Shown here piece by piece: positions 1 to 14,732 of a stretch of 24,000 bases of DNA. The DNA lies in NCBI GenBank assembly GCA_012730035.1, contig JAAYBQ010000126.1, positions 3,599 to 27,598 on the forward strand, given 5' to 3'. Each line of letters begins with the position of its first letter. Positions within the stretch are counted from its first letter, which is position 1. The notes beneath the pieces were generated by a model. It worked only from the letters and a program-made list of their open reading frames with translations, made no database searches and was not told where the DNA came from. This stretch comes from Spirochaetota bacterium (GTDB lineage: Bacteria; Spirochaetota; UBA4802; UBA5550). Position numbers and translations under genes: made by a program.

Positions 1-409
1 AGCCTTTTAAAAAAACTGCCGGGGCTACATTGAATTTTTTTGCAAGCGCCCTGATCTGTCTCACGTTAAGCTCCCTTTTTCCGTTCAGTATTTCCGAAAC
101 AACACCCTGTGAACCTATCTCCGCAAGATCTGACTGCCTGGTATTAGTTTCTGCCATAAGGTACTGAAGAATTTCAACTGCGCCTGCTTCGGGCACGTTA
201 TATTTATCTTTTTCATATTCGGCTAAAAGTATACCGACTGTTTCCATCAGTGCAGTAAGAGGGTGATTCTGGTCTTCACCGATTTCATCCACGAGAGAAT
301 CGAGAAGGTCAGACATCCGCCTGTATGATTCTTGATCATGGGGAACAGAAAGATAATCTGCAACACCCGGCCATGACTTGCTGAATATTTTTTTAACACT
401 TATATTCAT
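1..409 (-). CDS. higA: HigA-family antitoxin with a C-terminal XRE-type HTH; its C-terminus runs off the left window edge
   Basis: Manual translation from ATG 409..407 gives MNISVKKIFSKSW...VSEILNGKRELNVRQIRALAKKFNVAPAVFLKG, open to position 2. This is a typical HigA HTH tail. The start overlaps the higB stop as ATGA (406..409). It is missing from the ORF track because it is open at the edge. Confidence 0.8.
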   Translation of the reverse strand, partial: MNISVKKIFSKSWPGVADYLSVPHDQESYRRMSDLLDSLVDEIGEDQNHPLTALMETVGILLAEYEKDKYNVPEAGAVEILQYLMAETNTRQSDLAEIGSQGVVSEILNGKRELNVRQIRALAKKFNVAPAVFLKG

Positions 410-699
410 TTGTTATCTCTCCACTTCCCTTTATCATATTCCGCGTGAGTCAGTATGTATCTAATATAAAGCATTTTCCTGTTATAATGTATGCCGGCAA
501 TTAAACGGTACTTATTTCCACCAATATTAAAAACGGAAAGGTTATTCACCCTGTCAACGGTACTGAAAGTATGCCGCAAATCTATAAAAGACATAAAATC
601 CGTCTTCGAAACAATGGCGTACCAGCTTTTAAGAGCATTTTCACTTTCTGGGTGAATCTCTGCAAATTCGATTATACGCGCCTTTGAAATAACTTTCAT
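406..699 (-). CDS. higB: HigB-family type II toxin (RelE-like, ribosome-dependent mRNA endonuclease)
   Basis: The 97-aa product has the ...FNIGGNKYRLIAGIHYNRKMLYIRYILTHAEYDKGKW pattern characteristic of HigB toxins. Gene order is toxin first, then antitoxin, with 4-nt overlap coupling. Confidence 0.85.
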   Translation of the reverse strand: MKVISKARIIEFAEIHPESENALKSWYAIVSKTDFMSFIDLRHTFSTVDRVNNLSVFNIGGNKYRLIAGIHYNRKMLYIRYILTHAEYDKGKWRDNK

Positions 700-827: not shown

Positions 828-2291
828 ATGAAAAGTGATACCATGAACAGAAACCAGATAAAACAGATCAACGACTACCTTTACGAAATCCCGGCCGATG
901 CGTCACCCGGAATGAAGGTGCCTGCACGAATTTATGCATCTGAAAAACTTATCCGTGAAATGGACACCGCGGTATTTACCCAGATTATAAACGTTACAAC
1001 ACTCCCCGGCATAACAGGCCCGGCACTGTGCATGCCCGACGCTCATTCAGGCTACGGCTTCCCCATTGGCGGAGTTGCAGCCATCGATCCTGACTCAGGT
1101 ATCATCTCACCCGGAGGGATTGGTTTTGACATAAACTGCGGCGTGCGCCTCCTCTCAACCTCACTTACATACAATGAGGTCAGGCCGCGCATTAAGGAAC
1201 TTGTTGACACGCTCTTCCGCAGCATCCCTTCGGGAGTCGGTTCAGGCGGAATAGTAAAACTTACAGACAGCCAGTTTGACGAGGCAATGGTAAAGGGATC
1301 CAAGTGGGCGCTCGAACATGGCTTCGGGACCCCTTCGGACTGCGAGTTCACCGAAGAGAACGGGATGATCAGGGGCGCCGACCCTTCAGCCGTGTCACAG
1401 AGGGCACGCGAACGCGGTGCGGGGCAGATCGGCTCACTCGGTTCAGGCAACCACTACCTTGAGGTACAGGTGGCTCGTAAAGGGAACATTATAGATCCAG
1501 CAACTGCTGCAATCTTCGGGATAAATAAGGATGACCAGGTCATGATCATGATACACACAGGGAGCAGGGGATTTGGTCACCAGGTGGCAACAGATTACCT
1601 TCAGCTCTTCGCTTCGCAGCAGAAACGTTTCGGTTATGCGCTGCCCGACCGCGAACTAGCCTGCGCGCCGTTCAGATCAAAAGAGGGTCAGGACTATTTT
1701 TCCGCAATGAACTGCGCCATCAACATCGCATTCCTTAACCGCCAGCTTATAATTCACAAAACGCGCGAGATACTCCATGAAATGTTCGGCAGAACGCGTG
1801 GTCTTACGGTAAACACGGTGTACGATGTCTGCCACAACACGGCTAAGCTTGAAAAACATACTGTAAACGGAAAAGAAAAAATACTTCTCATACACAGAAA
1901 GGGTGCCACGCGCGCGTTCCCGCCAGGAAGCAGAGACATACCGGAAAGTTACAGGAGAACGGGCCAGCCGGTCCTTGTGGGCGGGAGCATGGAGAGCGGG
2001 TCTTGCATAATGTGCGGTACCGAAAGCGGATCGCCGGGTCTGTACACCACTGTCCACGGGAGCGGACGCGTCATGTCGCGACACGAGGCAAAGCGGCACT
2101 TTAACGGCCGGGAACTCCAGAAGAGAATGGAATCGCATGGAATACTTATCCGCACCGCGTCATTCTCCGGCCTTGCCGAAGAGGCTGGCGGCGCATACAA
2201 GAACATGAACGACGTGGTTGACTCGGCAGAAAAGGCAGGTCTGGGGAAGGTGGTGGCAACACTTGAACCCGTAGGGAACATTAAGGGATAA
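828..2291 (+). CDS. rtcB: RNA 3'-phosphate/5'-OH ligase RtcB
   Basis: The 487-aa product carries the RtcB signature blocks MPDAHSGYGFPIGGVAA, GFDINCGVRL, GSGNHYLEVQ, HTGSRGFGHQ, CHNTA, HRKGATRA and HGSGR. The start could also be ATG 843; no clear SD precedes either. Confidence 0.95.
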   Translation: MKSDTMNRNQIKQINDYLYEIPADASPGMKVPARIYASEKLIREMDTAVFTQIINVTTLPGITGPALCMPDAHSGYGFPIGGVAAIDPDSGIISPGGIGFDINCGVRLLSTSLTYNEVRPRIKELVDTLFRSIPSGVGSGGIVKLTDSQFDEAMVKGSKWALEHGFGTPSDCEFTEENGMIRGADPSAVSQRARERGAGQIGSLGSGNHYLEVQVARKGNIIDPATAAIFGINKDDQVMIMIHTGSRGFGHQVATDYLQLFASQQKRFGYALPDRELACAPFRSKEGQDYFSAMNCAINIAFLNRQLIIHKTREILHEMFGRTRGLTVNTVYDVCHNTAKLEKHTVNGKEKILLIHRKGATRAFPPGSRDIPESYRRTGQPVLVGGSMESGSCIMCGTESGSPGLYTTVHGSGRVMSRHEAKRHFNGRELQKRMESHGILIRTASFSGLAEEAGGAYKNMNDVVDSAEKAGLGKVVATLEPVGNIKG

Positions 2292-2722
2292 TGGACTACG
2301 AGATAATTCATGACATTACATCCGCTGATATAGCGGTGCGCATTAAGGGCGATACCCTCGCCGGTCTCTTTGTGAACGCAGGGAACACATTAATGAGTGA
2401 ACTCATGGATGATATCACCATGATAAACCGTGAAGTCCGGGTCACAGGCGAACTCCGGAACGATGAACTGGATATGCTCTACTTTGAGTTTCTGAACGAA
2501 TTCATTTTTTATAAGGATTCGCAGGATTTGCTGCTGCTCCCTGAAACAGTCGAGGTTACAAAAAAATCCGGCACTAATATTTGCCGTTATACACTTGCAG
2601 GTGAACAGATAGACAGGGAAAGGCACACGTTCAGGGTGGACATCAAGGCTGTTACCCTGCACGGGCTAAAGGTATATGAACGCAACGGAAACTTTATAGC
2701 AGTAACCGTCTTTGATGTATAA
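2291..2722 (+). CDS. Archease (RtcB activator/chaperone)
   Basis: The 143-aa product has N-terminal ...HDITSADIAVRIKGDTLAGLFVNAGNTLMS and C-terminal VDIKAVTLHGLKV...VTVFDV, matching the archease fold pattern. Its ATG overlaps the rtcB TAA as TAATG (2289..2293). Confidence 0.85.
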   Translation: MDYEIIHDITSADIAVRIKGDTLAGLFVNAGNTLMSELMDDITMINREVRVTGELRNDELDMLYFEFLNEFIFYKDSQDLLLLPETVEVTKKSGTNICRYTLAGEQIDRERHTFRVDIKAVTLHGLKVYERNGNFIAVTVFDV

Positions 2723-2953: not shown

Positions 2954-4831
2954 ATGAATACATATTTAAAAGCACTCATAGTGAATGTTGCTGACGGTTT
3001 CTACAAGGTGAACAGGTACAAGGTGGGTGATTACTTCGGGCCCGTTGACCTGGGGCTTCACCTTTCGCGCCATTTTGGAAGCCTCAACATAGGGGCCGGG
3101 CTTCTTGCCGGATCAATCTTTCCCGGATCTAACAGACTGATTGTTACGGGCTTCTCTCCCGCCTGGAGCGGATTCTACGTTTCCACAATGGGAGGTGCCG
3201 GCCTTGTGTTCAACGATCTTGGAATAGACATGCTGGCAATAAGGGGCAAGGCGCCCACACCATCAGTTCTCTACCTTAACAGGATACACGGTGAGGAGAT
3301 ACAGATAGACATTCAGCCCCTTGATATTATGAATATATGGAAAAGCGGCCGCGGTGGAATTTATTCACTCACAGACCATGTCTACGATATGTTCGGGACT
3401 CAGTATGACAACGATCCCCGCATACTTGTAACCGGCCCTGCCGCCGTTAATACAGGCTATGCAGCAATTGCATCAATGCCCATTAAAAAAGGCGAGATAT
3501 CTTTCGTCGATACCTGGGCAGGCCGCGGCGGATTCGGCTCCAAGATGTACCAGGAGCATGGACTGGCAGCAATAATTTACGGCGGAACATTTATTGACCA
3601 GGACTTCAGGGACAGGACCGTCGCTGACCAGTGGTTCGTTGACAAGTACAACAAGAAGCTTGCGGCAAAGGACCTTGAGGCTACAGCCAAGTACAGGTTC
3701 GAGGAGAACTTCAACACCGGCGGAACATTCGGCGTGAACTATGCGACCCTTGGCGGACGCATGATATCGTTCAACTACCGCAGCATGTACTGGACAGAAG
3801 AAAAACGGCTTGAAGTGCACGAAAAATTCGTGCGCAACCATTACCTTAAGCAGTTCAACGAAGAGACCATCGCAACCAAACAGCAGACAACTTGCGGCGA
3901 ACCATGCGTCGCTGTATGCAAAAAGATGCGCGGTGAATTTAAAAAAGACTATGAACCCTACCAGGCTATGGGGCCCCTTGCCGGCATATTTGACCAGCGC
4001 GCGGCAGAGAAGCTTAACCACAGGGCCGACACCTACGCATTTGATGCAATCTCGGCAGGAGGGGTCGTTGCCTGGCTCATGGACTGCATGGCTGACGGGC
4101 TGCTTAAACCCTCTGACCTGGGTCTAACTGACCGGCTGCCCAAGTTTGATCCCGACAATTTTGATGTTGTAAACGACTCAATGCATAACGCGGAGATTGG
4201 CTGCGAGATACTCGACTCAATTGTCGAAGGCCGCAGCCCCATTAACCTCCGGGCAGGCGCGCGTAAACTGGCCCGTCGATTATCAGGCAGACACCACAAA
4301 GAGATAATTGACCGCTTTGTATGTATTTCGTTCGCGCGCAACGGGTGGATGGTTCCCAACCAGTACTGGACACCGGGAGTCCTTTCACCAATGGCTATAA
4401 TGGGTAAATACTTCATGCACTACGGCGAAGAATTTTTACCCCCGCGCGAGCTTGGGCGAAAGGATGCAATAAGATTCAAGCAGGAACTCATACTTGACAA
4501 CATGGGCATGTGCAGGTTTCACCGTAAGTGGGCAGAAGAGATGATACCGGAGGTGATGGAGTCCCTTTTCGGAATGCAGGAACAGTATCTGCACAAAATA
4601 TCAATGGCAGCCGCGCGAATCAATGCACGCAACTCCTCCGTATTATGGGAGGGCGAGAGAAACATTGACTTTATCTACAATTTTCTGAAACGTAAACGGG
4701 ATGTGGATGGCGAGAAACACCCGGATCTCCAGAAATGGATAGACGAATTTGAAAAGGACAAAAAAGAGGCAGCGTTGAGTTTCTGGTACGAGATACACAA
4801 GGGGATACAGGAAACACTTACGGATTACTGA
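2954..4831 (+). CDS. aor: Aldehyde:ferredoxin oxidoreductase family protein (tungstopterin/[4Fe-4S] type), divergent subfamily
   Basis: The 625-aa product has an AOR-like N-terminal domain (...LIVTGFSPAWSGFYVSTMGGAGLVFNDLGIDMLAIRGKAPTPSVLYL). It has the Cys cluster TCGEPCVAVCKK plus a distal DNMGMCRFH. The cluster spacing is CX3CX3C, not the classical CX2CX3C. Confidence 0.85.
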   Translation: MNTYLKALIVNVADGFYKVNRYKVGDYFGPVDLGLHLSRHFGSLNIGAGLLAGSIFPGSNRLIVTGFSPAWSGFYVSTMGGAGLVFNDLGIDMLAIRGKAPTPSVLYLNRIHGEEIQIDIQPLDIMNIWKSGRGGIYSLTDHVYDMFGTQYDNDPRILVTGPAAVNTGYAAIASMPIKKGEISFVDTWAGRGGFGSKMYQEHGLAAIIYGGTFIDQDFRDRTVADQWFVDKYNKKLAAKDLEATAKYRFEENFNTGGTFGVNYATLGGRMISFNYRSMYWTEEKRLEVHEKFVRNHYLKQFNEETIATKQQTTCGEPCVAVCKKMRGEFKKDYEPYQAMGPLAGIFDQRAAEKLNHRADTYAFDAISAGGVVAWLMDCMADGLLKPSDLGLTDRLPKFDPDNFDVVNDSMHNAEIGCEILDSIVEGRSPINLRAGARKLARRLSGRHHKEIIDRFVCISFARNGWMVPNQYWTPGVLSPMAIMGKYFMHYGEEFLPPRELGRKDAIRFKQELILDNMGMCRFHRKWAEEMIPEVMESLFGMQEQYLHKISMAAARINARNSSVLWEGERNIDFIYNFLKRKRDVDGEKHPDLQKWIDEFEKDKKEAALSFWYEIHKGIQETLTDY

Positions 4832-5065: not shown

Positions 5066-5626
5066 TTACTTCGCCTTGTTCAGCAGCTTCTCCTTGAGGC
5101 TCTGGAACTCGGCTTCTGAGATCGCTCCTGAATTCTTCAGCTCCTGCAGCTTTTCGACAGTAGAAATGACATCATCCTTCGAAAAACTTTTCTTTAAATT
5201 CTTCGCGTACTCCCTCCCCTTATCAACATACTCCTTGTACTTTGCCTTGACCGCTTCAGTGTTGAGACTGTCAAGTGTGCCGTTATTGGCAAAGTGGCTG
5301 TCAAATATTTTACCCAGAGCATAGGTAGTGGCACCGGAGATTATTACCTGCGATGCAATGCCAAGAAGAGTACCAACACCTGGCAGAGCCTTTACTATGC
5401 TCGCGCCAAGCCTTGTGGCGGATGCGCCTGCGATTGATGTCGCCAGAGTCTTACCCTTGTTCGAGTCATAATCCACCTTATGAAATTCGGCCACCTTCTG
5501 TATCAGGTCATACTGGATTGCAGATACGGCAACGAAGTCCGCAACCGGAACTGGTATCGCACCTGCGGTCATGGCATAGATTACATGGGTCTTGATAATA
5601 TCATCAATGGTTTTAGTTTCGGGCAT
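5066..5626 (-). CDS. DUF697-like domain protein with a C-terminal SHOCT motif
   Basis: The 186-aa product has an N-terminal Gly/Ala-rich amphipathic region (...AMTAGAIPVPVADFVAVSAIQYDLIQKVAEFHKV...GASATRLGASIVKALPGVGTLLG) resembling DUF697. Its tail VEKLQELKNSGAISEAEFQSLKEKLL matches the SHOCT pattern. A strong SD is present (AAAGGAGAAACAAT-ATG). Confidence 0.65.
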   Translation of the reverse strand: MPETKTIDDIIKTHVIYAMTAGAIPVPVADFVAVSAIQYDLIQKVAEFHKVDYDSNKGKTLATSIAGASATRLGASIVKALPGVGTLLGIASQVIISGATTYALGKIFDSHFANNGTLDSLNTEAVKAKYKEYVDKGREYAKNLKKSFSKDDVISTVEKLQELKNSGAISEAEFQSLKEKLLNKAK

Positions 5627-5690: not shown

Positions 5691-5975
5691 CTAACAGCAT
5701 CCCGAACTGGAATCGCATCCGCAAACCGGTTCTGTCCCTCGCAGCATCCCTGTAATCACCGCAGCAGCACACCCCACACCAGAATTCACAGAAATTGCGC
5801 CGAACGCGCAGTTCTTCGCGCACGCGCCGCACTCCATACATTTATCCTTATGCTTCATGACGGCCTTTTTGTCACTCATTTCAAAAACGGCGTGGGGGCA
5901 GACCTCTGTACAGCGGCCGCAGCCTGTGCATTTTTCCGGGAAAAACTTCAGTGTAGAATTCTGCAGGTATTTCAT
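5691..5975 (-). CDS. hgcB: Mercury-methylation ferredoxin HgcB (2x[4Fe-4S])
   Basis: The 94-aa product has two CX2CX2CX3C motifs (CTGCGRCTEVCP and CMECGACAKNCA). It also has the conserved GVGCA Cys and a Cys-rich tail ending in GCC. Its ATG overlaps the hgcA stop as ATGA (5972..5975). Confidence 0.9.
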   Translation of the reverse strand: MKYLQNSTLKFFPEKCTGCGRCTEVCPHAVFEMSDKKAVMKHKDKCMECGACAKNCAFGAISVNSGVGCAAAVITGMLRGTEPVCGCDSSSGCC

Positions 5976-7123
5976 ATCATTCCCCCCACCCTGTCATATA
6001 GTATTAGAAAAGCCGATAAAACAGCAGTTACAATATAAATCGGCAGAGCGTATTTTAATTCCTTTTTAACACCTGAAAGGTGTGTGAATGTTGTAGCGCC
6101 CGTGAACTGCACTGCAAAGTATGACGTAAACGCAGTAAACAGCAGTACAAAAGCAAGCTGCGTAAGTTCACTGTACTGGAAAACATCTGCCATTGAAAAA
6201 GAAAGCGGCACGAATACCGCAAGACCCGTGAGCAGACCCTTCAAAGCGAATGACCTGAACGGAACAAAGGGGAGCAGCATTGGGGTCATAAACGCGCCCG
6301 TGAGAACCGCGAACAGCCCGCCAAGCAGAAAGGGCATGCCGTCATAGAAGGCGTTTTTAAAGATTATCCCTTCCGGTGTCAGCCCGAAGATCACAAGCAC
6401 TGCAAGGGCAAACTGCGGGTACTTTTTCATTGCAGGGTTGATCTCCATTGGCGTGAGGACAAGCCTGTCAATCACACCGAACTTAATGATTCTCATTTCA
6501 CCTGTTGCCTTGTACCCGGCCGCAACATATGCCTTTATGTCCTTCGCAAGCACAGGCCCGTACATCACCCTGAACCCGGTCTGCTTCTGCACCTCTGCAG
6601 CATCAACACCGGGCGCGCCAAGCTGCGGAACAATAATCTTTCTATGTTTCACAACTTTCTCAACACCTGAAAGCCTGATCCTGTTCACAACTTCCGCAGT
6701 ACCGAATGTACCCTTCCCTGCCGCGCACCATACGTTAATTCCTTTTGTATCCAGCACAAGTATCCACGCGTTCATGCCATGAAGAGCTTCGCGCAGGTAA
6801 TTGAAGCTCATGCCGTAATTCGCGCTTACAAATACGTCCGAGTTCGATGAGGGATTGCCAACTGCGTATAGCCCTGGTACGACAGTGAAGTTGTTCCTGA
6901 AGCTGCCCGTGCGTGCCTTCACATGGTTCCACCGGTCTTTTCGCGTGAGAAGAGTAGCGGCAACAGGAAATGTGACTTGTTCATTAATAAAAGTTCCGGT
7001 TACAAAATCCTGCCTGAAAATACTGTCATCGATTTTTTGTGCAGGGCCGCAACATGCTGCAGCGGGACTTTTAAGCAGCATCGATTTATTACCGCCGGTA
7101 ACGGGTTGAAACTGTTTATCCAT
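5972..7123 (-). CDS. hgcA: Mercury-methylation corrinoid protein HgcA
   Basis: The 383-aa product has the cap-helix signature GINVWCAAGKGTFG. The motif codons lie at 6713..6736, and Cys133 is TGC at 6727..6725. The C-terminal half is multi-TM (about 5 hydrophobic helices), and the N-terminus has a CCGP motif. SD GGAGGTGA precedes the ATG. Confidence 0.93.
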   Translation of the reverse strand: MDKQFQPVTGGNKSMLLKSPAAACCGPAQKIDDSIFRQDFVTGTFINEQVTFPVAATLLTRKDRWNHVKARTGSFRNNFTVVPGLYAVGNPSSNSDVFVSANYGMSFNYLREALHGMNAWILVLDTKGINVWCAAGKGTFGTAEVVNRIRLSGVEKVVKHRKIIVPQLGAPGVDAAEVQKQTGFRVMYGPVLAKDIKAYVAAGYKATGEMRIIKFGVIDRLVLTPMEINPAMKKYPQFALAVLVIFGLTPEGIIFKNAFYDGMPFLLGGLFAVLTGAFMTPMLLPFVPFRSFALKGLLTGLAVFVPLSFSMADVFQYSELTQLAFVLLFTAFTSYFAVQFTGATTFTHLSGVKKELKYALPIYIVTAVLSAFLILYDRVGGMI

Positions 7124-7129
7124 AAATCC

Positions 7130-7453
7130 TCACCTCCCCCGGATCCCCCCGGTAAATTCATTCATAAGATATATCATCTCTTCAAAATTTTTTCTATTAA
7201 TGCAGTAGCATGAACGTGGCCCGTCAATTTCACCCATGATAAGTCCGCATTTCTTAAGCTCACCCAGGTGCTGGGAAACAGTGGACTGCGCAAGAGGCAG
7301 GACGTCCACGATCTGGCCGCAGATACAGGTGTTCCTCTCCGCAAGAATGTTCAGAATTGTTATGCGTGCCGGATGCGAGAGCGCCCTGGCATACTCCGCC
7401 AGACGTTTTGCATTATCGTTGAATTCGTTGCACTTTTTGTATGCCATAATCAT
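7130..7453 (-). CDS. arsR: ArsR/SmtB-family metalloregulator, first gene of the arsR-hgcAB operon
   Basis: It has the winged-HTH pattern [48 protein letters not shown]. The CIC pair sits at the position of the ArsR CVC metalloid site, and there is a further CYC near the C-terminus. The track ORF begins at a TTG (7480). The first ATGs are at 7453 and 7447, and I prefer one of those. Confidence 0.88.
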
Positions 7454-7477
7454 ATTTATCGCATATATGCGATAAAT
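7454..7477. promoter_or_regulatory. Perfect 24-nt palindrome, candidate ArsR-type operator
   Basis: ATTTATCGCATATATGCGATAAAT equals its own reverse complement (12-0-12). It directly abuts the first ATG of arsR. A second AT-only palindrome, AAAAATAATTATTTTT, lies at 7482..7497. Confidence 0.5.
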
Positions 7478-7510
7478 CAAGAAAAATAATTATTTTTCTC
7501 AATAATCCGC

Positions 7511-13568: not shown

Positions 13569-14732
13569 TTATTGTGTACTCTGCCTGTATTCATTCCTGA
13601 GAAAATTTGAAATATTTTTTTCAAGCAGATCATTGGGCAAAAGAAACGAATCATGTCCGTTGTCAGTATCGATGTCGGTGTAATTTACGTTCTTGCCGTT
13701 TACACGCAGCGCCCGCACAATCTCCTTCGCATTGTCGCTGGGGTAAAGCCAGTCCGAGGTAAAGCTTGCAACAAGGTAGTTCGCCAGCACATTTTCAAAA
13801 GCATTTACAAGGCTGCCGCCGTAATCCCCGTTAAGATCGAAAAAATCGATCGCTTTTGTAATGTATATGTACGCGTTCGCGTCGAACCTTTCTACAAACT
13901 TAATCCCCTGGTGACGCAGATATGATTCCACCATGAATTCACTGCTGCCGCTGACAGGCTGCATTCCTGACTTCTGGAAGTTGCGCCCGAATTTTTCGTG
14001 CATGTGCTTTTCACTCAGATAGGTTATATGCCCTATCATTCTGGCCAGGGAGAGTCCCGCGACCGGTATTGCGCTGTCGTAATAATCCCCTGCGTTCCAG
14101 TTGGGATCATTGAATATTGCCTGACGTCCCACCTCGTTAAAAGCAATACCCTGCGCAGAAAGCGAAGCCGAGGTCGCAATGGCAATGCAGGACTCAACCT
14201 CATCGGGATACGATATGGTCCACTGCAGCGCCTGCATCCCACCCATTGACCCCCCTGCTACGGCAAGCAGCTTTTCTATGCCAAGGTGTTTAACCAGGGC
14301 ATGCTGAGCCTTTACCATGTCTGCAATTGTAATAAGGGGAAAGCTCATGCCGAACGGCCTGCCGGTTGCAGGATTAACCGATGCAGGCCCCGTTGAGCCA
14401 GTACATCCGCCAAGTATATTCGAGCATATTATAAAATATTTATCAGTATCAAATGCCTTTCCCGGCCCTATGTACCAGTCCCACCAGCCCGGATTCTTAT
14501 CTTCCGGGGAATGATAGCCCGCAGCATGGGCGCTGCCCGAAAGAGCATGACAAATGAGGATCGCGTTTTTACCTGCACGGTCAGGCGTACCCCAGGTCTC
14601 GTAAGCAAGGGTAACAGGTCCTATTTTTTCGCCGCACTGGAGTTCAAGCTCGCCGGGTGGAGCTGCAAATGTGTAGTAACGTGTCTGGACAATTCCGGCT
14701 GAGCCGGGTTTGCCATATATTTCTTCAGCCAT
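13569..14732 (-). CDS. metX: Homoserine O-acetyltransferase MetX
   Basis: The 387-aa alpha/beta hydrolase has the nucleophile-elbow motif GGSMGGMQALQW plus the typical ILICHALSGSAH and FTSDWLYP blocks. Confidence 0.93.
   Translation of the reverse strand: MAEEIYGKPGSAGIVQTRYYTFAAPPGELELQCGEKIGPVTLAYETWGTPDRAGKNAILICHALSGSAHAAGYHSPEDKNPGWWDWYIGPGKAFDTDKYFIICSNILGGCTGSTGPASVNPATGRPFGMSFPLITIADMVKAQHALVKHLGIEKLLAVAGGSMGGMQALQWTISYPDEVESCIAIATSASLSAQGIAFNEVGRQAIFNDPNWNAGDYYDSAIPVAGLSLARMIGHITYLSEKHMHEKFGRNFQKSGMQPVSGSSEFMVESYLRHQGIKFVERFDANAYIYITKAIDFFDLNGDYGGSLVNAFENVLANYLVASFTSDWLYPSDNAKEIVRALRVNGKNVNYTDIDTDNGHDSFLLPNDLLEKNISNFLRNEYRQSTQ

Follow-up and report, generated by a model that had tools for sequence, protein, structure and literature searches.

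A predicted mercury-methylation operon of an uncultured spirochaete, headed by an arsenic-family ArsR regulator with a candidate operator

We analysed a 24,000 nucleotide (nt) stretch of contig JAAYBQ010000126.1 from a Spirochaetota bacterium (which we refer to as the window, and whose numbering all positions follow), in which three genes, co-oriented on the minus strand by the open-reading frame listing and by direct reading, make up a complete arsR-hgcA-hgcB mercury-methylation cluster of an uncultured spirochaete. We consider it highly probable (about 85%) that these genes form an autoregulated three-gene operon under arsenite-type control, in an organism that is predicted to methylate mercury (Hg). 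The initial annotation of this DNA had called a complete arsR-hgcA-hgcB operon, a call upheld by the equivalog scores, by every motif it listed and by the junctions at the coordinates it gave; its 5' boundary of arsR was wrong and it did not mention the minus strand.

Both Hgc proteins passed the profile search with hgcA/hgcB models that had been proposed for them, HgcA reaching 390.6 bits against the NCBIfam HgcA equivalog NF040863 (cut-off 275) and HgcB 121.3 bits against NF040864 (cut-off 99). HgcA scored 197.4 bits against the fused HgcAB-like model, below its cut-off of 285, and 69.8 bits against the model for the gamma subunit of the corrinoid iron-sulphur protein (CFeSP; cut-off 306), and as it scores far better on the HgcA equivalog model, the fused or CFeSP-like paralogue that the initial annotation had allowed for is ruled against; hgcB is a separate gene directly 3' of hgcA and is not fused to it. 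The sole Pfam match of HgcA is PF03599 (CdhD/CFeSP domain, residues 80-199) and its relatives in the PDB are the CFeSP gamma subunits 2h9a and 4c1n (E-value about 3e-10; 2.6e-10 for 2h9a); no solved HgcA structure was found in the PDB, where CFeSP large subunits alone matched. The cap-helix motif NVWCAAGK reads exactly on the minus strand where it had been placed, with Cys133 as codon TGC at 6725..6727, and no variation was seen at residues 130-142 (NVWCAAGKGTFGT) among 23 aligned homologues with identity down to 50%. By analogy with cap-helix Cys93 of HgcA from Pseudodesulfovibrio mercurii ND132, the equivalent ligand residue (Zheng et al. 2024, PMC11588087), Cys133 is the predicted lower axial thiolate ligand of the cobalt. 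The claimed C-terminal domain with several transmembrane (TM) segments is borne out by Kyte-Doolittle analysis, which gave five hydrophobic segments within residues 237-382 (237-255, 266-284, 291-315, 320-341 and 358-382) and none before residue 215. The start of hgcA at 7123 is supported because close relatives in the 23-homologue alignment have the same N-terminus, M-D/E-x-K/R-F/Y-Q. In one-genome-per-species collections the best HgcA matches, 50-62% identical, are from Nitrospirota and Spirochaetota, and the window protein represents a 90%-identity protein cluster, two other members of which are NLV67054.1, a Spirochaetes bacterium protein with the annotation acetyl-CoA synthase subunit gamma, and HQO40596.1, a Spirochaetota bacterium protein with the annotation mercury methylation corrinoid protein HgcA.

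HgcB was read directly and agrees with its earlier description: the two CX2CX2CX3C ferredoxin motifs are CTGCGRCTEVC (residues 16-26) and CMECGACAKNC (46-56), Cys69 lies within GVGCA, and the chain ends in C93-C94 followed by a TAG stop. By these sequence characters, which include all the diagnostic motifs, the two proteins are orthologues of the HgcA/HgcB pair that methylates mercury. Like ND132 HgcA, the window protein combines NVWCAAGK and its essential Cys with a CFeSP-like domain and five TM segments, and like ND132 HgcB its partner is encoded adjacently and has two CX2CX2CX3C motifs, a mid-chain Cys (C73 in ND132, C69 here) and a C-terminal CC (C94/95 in ND132, C93/94 here); the window and ND132 proteins pass the same NCBIfam equivalog models. 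C73, C94 and C95 are essential in ND132 HgcB (Zheng et al. 2024, PMC11588087). Unlike ND132, the window comes from Spirochaetota, its HgcA has 383 amino acids (aa) and carries a single CC in an N-terminal extension, its HgcB has an extra C84-G-C86, and the activity of the pair is a predicted one.

The junctions of arsR, hgcA and hgcB are tight enough to permit translational coupling. The arsR stop TGA (7132..7130) sits within the Shine-Dalgarno sequence GGAGGTGA (7137..7130), 6 nt (GGATTT) separate it from the hgcA ATG (7123), and the hgcA stop and hgcB start overlap by 4 nt as ATGA (5972..5975), so that direct reading confirms the gap, the Shine-Dalgarno and the overlap of the initial annotation. 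A sequence scan reported no terminator-like site at either gene junction nor directly 3' of hgcB. Seven other loci (L003, L006, L092, L154, L175, L176 and L177) have the same gene order, again with tight junctions, and the ArsR protein is also present on contigs of the metagenome-assembled genomes (MAGs) GCA_029559885.1 and GCA_034677375.1 and of many sequencing runs, with the gene order of the window.

ArsR matches NF033788 at 64.1 bits (cut-off 55) as well as PF01022, and a gene-caller protein of 107 aa from ATG 7453 (P0131) is 100% identical to it. The initial annotation had started arsR at TTG 7480, which is a mechanical open-reading frame start only: 16 of the 18 aligned homologues (the window's called protein excluded) begin at the Met equivalent to ATG 7447 (MAYKK...), the family N-terminal consensus is MAYxK and 7475..7480 form a conserved TTGA(C/T)T box, so that TTG 7480 is rejected and the real start is placed at ATG 7447 (or 7453). 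The cysteines of the 105-aa protein are residues 6, 41, 43, 67, 80 and 82, among which C41, C43 and C80 are invariant and C82 nearly invariant across the family alignment; they form two C-x-C pairs 39 residues apart (C41/C43 and C80/C82, with 36 residues between them). An AlphaFold2 model (mean predicted local distance difference test 83.2, predicted template-modelling score 0.72) has helices at residues 11-22, 26-38, 46-49, 54-67 and 85-103, strands at 70-73 and 80-83 and a beta-bridge at 42-43; this places the C41/C43 pair in the loop that leads into helix 3, and the C80/C82 pair on the wing strand beta2. The winged-helix fold and the C-x-C beside helix 3 are shared with R773/E. coli ArsR, and both the C-I-C and the C-Y-C remarked on in the initial annotation are present. 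Its equation of C-I-C with the classical ArsR metalloid site falls away, as the third R773 Cys is absent: opposite ELCVCDLC of R773 ArsR the window protein reads TCICGQIV, with two Cys and without the third (C37) of the classical three-Cys site, and its second, wing C-x-C is not part of the R773 site. Against PRK10141 it scored 17.2 bits (cut-off 97), and an ungapped register puts the pair at 31/33, not 32/34. By sequence, the arrangement would fit a four-Cys ArsR2-type site better than the R773 site: compared by published residue numbers and not by alignment, the spacing equals that of Cys47/49/86/88 in ND132 ArsR2 (41/43/80/82 here).

A perfect palindrome lies between the TTGA(C/T)T box and the arsR gene (Table 1), and we regard it as the candidate ArsR operator. 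It is the only perfect palindrome in the window with arms of at least 12, palindromes with arms of at least 10 averaged 0.025 over 200 shuffles, and its core is the sole match in the window to the family pattern; allowing up to two mismatches brought up no further ArsR operator in the window, so no further regulon member is visible there. The layout is common to all eight arsR-hgcAB loci (the window and the seven listed above, called independent, with ArsR 56-75% identical), each having cTTGA(C/T)T, a core ATCGYATATNTACGAT, 10-14 nt and the arsR ATG. Directly 5' of the operator, cTTGAC(T) is found in 7/7 of the other loci. A -10-like hexamer starting with the last T of the core, then 5-9 nt and the arsR ATG, are present in seven of the eight, the exception being L154, in which the ATG follows 10 nt directly after the core, and no Shine-Dalgarno sequence precedes arsR in any of them. 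We infer a sigma-70-type promoter whose spacer and -10 are covered by the candidate operator, and an arsR mRNA that would be leaderless or nearly so. Autoregulation from an operator that overlaps the promoter is a feature of R773-family ArsR.

To the operator and the conserved cysteines we can add the company that this regulator keeps. When metagenome contigs were searched with the ArsR alignment, 80 loci (L095-L174) came up at 52-70% identity, 77 with enough upstream sequence, and the strict core ATCG[CT]ATATNT[AG]CGAT lay within 120 base pairs (bp) of the arsR start in 54 of these 77. A 16-bp motif, ATCGTATATTT(G/A)CGAT, is almost invariant 5' of arsR in these loci, which belong to many uncultured bacteria, 9-98 nt away with a modal distance of 13. 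Most remaining loci carry ATCGTA-N4/5-TACGAT variants, some have two sites, with the strict core farther upstream and ATCGTA-N4/5-ACGAT beside the arsR start, and in some a hairpin lies between the two sites (e.g. L102, L105, L112, L130 and L131). The candidate operator overlaps core promoter elements in loci of both promoter types: those with TTTGCGAT in the right half have a TTTG box 5' and a core containing TATATTTG, which we take to match the Bacteroidota -7 promoter element, and those with TTTACGAT or TCTACGAT are preceded by TTGAC and read ...T(C/T)TACGAT. The downstream gene could be classified in 72 of the 80 loci and encoded ArsM in 44, ArsI in 6, ArsC in 5 (plus one of low-molecular-weight phosphatase type), ArsN2 in 3, Acr3 in 1 and HgcA in 1; the cluster representatives reached NCBIfam scores of 363 (ArsM), 134 (ArsI), 142 (ArsN2), 441 (Acr3) and 376 bits (HgcA), and the ArsC representative 113 bits, under the model cut-off of 174. 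One ArsR at 65% identity (P0211) belongs to an arsR-arsM-arsC cluster whose contig has a gene for a GldM-domain protein as well. The closest relatives (64-83% identity) are on contigs equal in length to those of HgcA hits, and four of them were confirmed in the arsR-hgcA-hgcB order.

Like the ArsR proteins heading arsM, arsI, arsC or acr3 (52-70% identity), the window ArsR has the invariant recognition helix, C-I-C, S-C-Y-C and the operator core ATCGTATATTTRCGAT 5' of its gene. It differs from them in its cargo, which is hgcAB and not arsenic detoxification, and in lacking the C-terminal CC that most of them have, and their promoters are mostly of Bacteroidota type, with TATATTTG at the operator centre in the TTTG-box loci. 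Because of the operators and the arsenic-resistance cargo of the subfamily, the sequences place the hgcAB-linked regulators on a side branch within a genuine family of ArsR proteins of arsenic operons, and hgcAB in this spirochaete is probably wired to an arsenite-type sensor.

Under the preferred reading, an ArsR dimer would bind the palindrome over the promoter spacer and -10 and repress its own tricistronic transcript, which would start at or a few bases from the arsR AUG and be nearly leaderless. ArsR would come off the DNA and hgcAB be turned on when C41/C43 and C80/C82 bind a thiophilic effector, for which As(III) is the likeliest candidate, hgcA being translated from its own strong Shine-Dalgarno sequence overlapping the arsR stop and hgcB through ATGA coupling. 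The enzymatic steps would then follow those in the literature, in which low-potential electrons from the two [4Fe-4S] clusters of HgcB reduce the HgcA corrinoid to Co(I), the corrinoid is methylated by S-adenosylmethionine (SAM) and not by methyltetrahydrofolate, the cap-helix Cys coordinating the resulting methyl-Co(III) from the lower axial side, and transfer of the methyl group from HgcA to an Hg(II) bis-thiolate yields methylmercury (Zheng et al. 2024, PMC11588087).

The system as such is already known and recognised by standard annotation: GenBank contains the contig, the name HgcA has already been given to one protein of the HgcA cluster, and a spirochaete arsR-hgcAB has been published. 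The initial annotation had rightly presented it as known. ArsR-like genes beside hgcAB have been reported in Desulfovibrionaceae, Nitrospira, Spirochaetes (MAGs), Ignavibacteriae and Bacteroidetes, associations of hgcAB with acr3, arsC and arsM have also been published, and Spirochaetes are established putative Hg methylators. The statement that an ArsR-like regulator is co-transcribed with hgcAB in P. mercurii was likewise correct. The ND132 protein, ArsR2 (DND132_1054), is a close parallel to the regulator in the window, being encoded directly 5' of hgcAB on the same strand and having one N-terminal Cys and no C-terminal CC. The arsR2 and hgcA genes of ND132 are induced by arsenic and by treatments that raise S-adenosylhomocysteine (SAH), not by Hg (Gionfriddo et al., bioRxiv 2022). 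Unlike in the paper on ND132 ArsR2 (Gionfriddo et al., bioRxiv 2022), which mentions no palindrome, operator or inverted repeat, a conserved candidate operator is identified here, and a literature search on the hgcA/arsR promoter found no description of one. What is new, in modest measure, is thus the operator together with the assignment of the regulator to the arsM/arsI/arsC subfamily.

Several observations weigh against parts of this reading. The C-terminal CC tail of most subfamily members is absent from the window ArsR and from its relatives P0133 and P0141, which is our main reason for caution on the effector, and the effector site may differ from that of the arsM-linked proteins. The TTGATT promoter was not among the output of a consensus promoter scan, which gave instead a weaker CTGGCA-17-AATAAT at 7517..7489; were that the promoter, the palindrome would lie just 3' of the transcription start, still repressing, and arsR would not be leaderless. 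The spacer in the window has a length of 16 nt, and the ATG opens as early as the sixth base past the -10-like hexamer. None of the publications consulted demonstrates Hg methylation by a cultured spirochaete, and the methylation rates of ND132 could not be predicted from its hgcAB transcript levels, nor was its hgcA induced by Hg (Gionfriddo et al., bioRxiv 2022). The absent CC tail also bears on an alternative that we judge unlikely, in which the operon is as described and ArsR senses SAH, Zn/Cd/Pb through its four Cys, or a redox or persulfide signal, so that hgcAB is not tied to arsenic. ND132 ArsR2 responds to SAH-raising treatments too, its four-Cys site has been noted as resembling a CadC-type Zn/Cd/Pb site, and HgcAB consumes SAM and yields SAH, all of which would suit such a sensor; yet the subfamily, with its invariant recognition helix and operator at 52-70% identity, overwhelmingly heads arsenic-resistance genes, and the four Cys are invariant or nearly so in arsM-linked and hgcA-linked ArsR alike.

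Other alternatives concern the pair rather than its regulator. It is less likely than not that HgcAB, though a true orthologue, methylates Hg only as a side reaction, its selected role being another corrinoid reaction such as halomethane dehalogenation or metalloid handling: heterologous HgcAB dechlorinates CCl4 besides methylating Hg (Wang et al. 2026, bioRxiv), an ND132 hgcAB knockout is more sensitive to As(V), and regulator and operator alike are the ones used by ars operons. Such a role is compatible with the ability to methylate Hg and would touch the physiological function only, and nothing in the window (e.g. ars or dehalogenation genes beside hgcAB) speaks directly for either of the two. 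As HgcA, a SAM/corrinoid methyltransferase, takes the place of ArsM behind the same ArsR and 16-bp operator, one can go further and suppose that hgcAB stands under a complete arsenic-detoxification module, with HgcAB induced by arsenite and selected for metalloid handling and Hg methylation as a by-product, a speculative reading to which we give little credence. We consider it very improbable that these genes encode a CFeSP-like or fused HgcAB-like paralogue that does not methylate, or are an inactive remnant; the CdhD/CFeSP domain is common to HgcA and CFeSP and the fused HgcAB of Pyrococcus furiosus serves as the paralogue root of HgcAB trees, but the equivalog score (390.6 bits against 197.4 for the fusion, under its cut-off, and 69.8 for CFeSP gamma), the separate, intact genes with all essential Cys and the conservation of the locus in many samples and related species argue against it.

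Table 1. Coordinates of the arsR-hgcA-hgcB genes, their predicted control elements and the divergent small gene
Feature	Position	Strand	Description
hgcB	5691..5975	-	2x[4Fe-4S] ferredoxin, 94 aa
hgcA	5972..7123	-	corrinoid methyltransferase, 383 aa; N-terminal CCGP region, CFeSP-like corrinoid domain, five predicted TM segments
cap-helix motif NVWCAAGK	6713..6736	-	HgcA residues 130-137; reverse complement AACGTATGGTGCGCGGCAGGGAAG
Shine-Dalgarno GGAGGTGA	7130..7137	-	for hgcA; direct reading
arsR	7130..7447	-	ArsR/SmtB winged-helix regulator, 105 aa from ATG 7447
-10-like TAAATA	7458..7453	-	overlapped by the palindrome, as is the promoter spacer
perfect 24-bp palindrome ATTTATCGCATATATGCGATAAAT	7454..7477		candidate ArsR operator
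16-bp core ATCGCATATATGCGAT	7458..7473		within the palindrome
-35-like hexamer TTGATT	7475..7480	-	predicted arsR-hgcAB promoter; first three bases are the TTG of the initial annotation
small DUF6132-like membrane protein gene	7573..7743	+	divergent from arsR; in-frame TGA 7663..7665

Divergent from arsR lies a small gene that is a candidate unannotated selenoprotein of the C-x4-U type, with good comparative evidence. It encodes MIPYKLIIGVIAGAALGFAYYKYIGCRTGG-TGA-PMTSNPYSSMLIGALLGAYLSQLKH, with 25 more codons past the TGA at which gene callers stop it after 30 aa, and with Cys in place of the TGA the protein matches Pfam DUF6132 across the stop (E-value 9e-5; 22.4 bits, just under the cut-off of 23.2). 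A 56-aa homologue (P0251), which adjoins a rhodanese gene, has Cys exactly at the TGA position (GCRTGGC-RITSNPYSS), and the TGA and the frame beyond it are preserved on two related contigs, L092 (where the gene likewise diverges from arsR-hgcA) and L093, which differ at 16 and 11 positions respectively over the 90 nt that precede the TGA but at only 2 and 1 over the 39 nt that follow. The selenoprotein call is made because of the Cys homologue and the conserved frame, not of RNA structure: Rfam gave no selenocysteine insertion sequence match for the small gene, a hairpin CAGCA-GUA-UGCUG 25 nt past the UGA folds no better than shuffles (z = -0.6 to -2.2), and no tRNA-Sec gene or other selenocysteine machinery was found in the window. 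If HgcAB were indeed selected for metalloid handling, this selenocysteine DUF6132-like membrane protein might share the same thiol/selenol chemistry.

On the other side of the cluster, a DUF697 and SHOCT protein gene (5066..5626, minus strand) begins 64 nt downstream of hgcB, the gap holding a promoter-like TTGACA-17-TAGATT, and beyond it is an aldehyde:ferredoxin oxidoreductase-family gene (2954..4831, plus strand; 625 aa) that scored 334 bits against the GAPOR model (cut-off 1300). Both genes are kept beside hgcB in L177, at 70% HgcA identity; they are absent from 80 more distant hgcAB loci and there is the separate promoter-like site, and we rejected them as parts of the system and regard them as neighbours. 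A SAM riboswitch (RF00162, 14780..14879, minus strand; 89.6 bits, gathering score 44.4) precedes two genes of its own strand, one for an alpha/beta-hydrolase (13569..14732), taken to be metX, and one for a MetW-domain protein (12913..13518); it is ordinary methionine/SAM regulation, of note as SAM is the methyl donor of HgcAB. About 100 nt past the selenoprotein candidate starts a pair consisting of an extracytoplasmic function sigma factor (Sigma70_r2, 7840..8385, plus strand) and, directly after it, a FecR-like anti-sigma factor with a GTG start (8386..9408, plus strand); a hairpin resembling a terminator (7799..7826, given as minus strand) separates this pair from the candidate. The next four genes, on the minus strand at 9425..12573, encode first a 4Fe-4S dicluster protein (Fer4_11/Fer4_7, 328-339 aa) and then proteins of 156, 167 and 288 aa without a Pfam match. 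Near the start of the window a HigB-type toxin gene (406..699, minus strand) adjoins rtcB (828..2291), which forms an RNA-repair pair with an archease gene (2291..2722).

The hgcAB genes are the only known genetic marker of microbial methylmercury production, and correct calls matter for predicting which anaerobes contribute to it. The candidate operator, along with the otherwise arsenic-resistance-controlling subfamily of the regulator, provides a concrete DNA site for the link between arsenic and hgcAB, so far shown only through expression studies in Pseudodesulfovibrio. This suggests that hgcAB expression in arsenic-bearing anoxic settings could be predictable from the operator motif.

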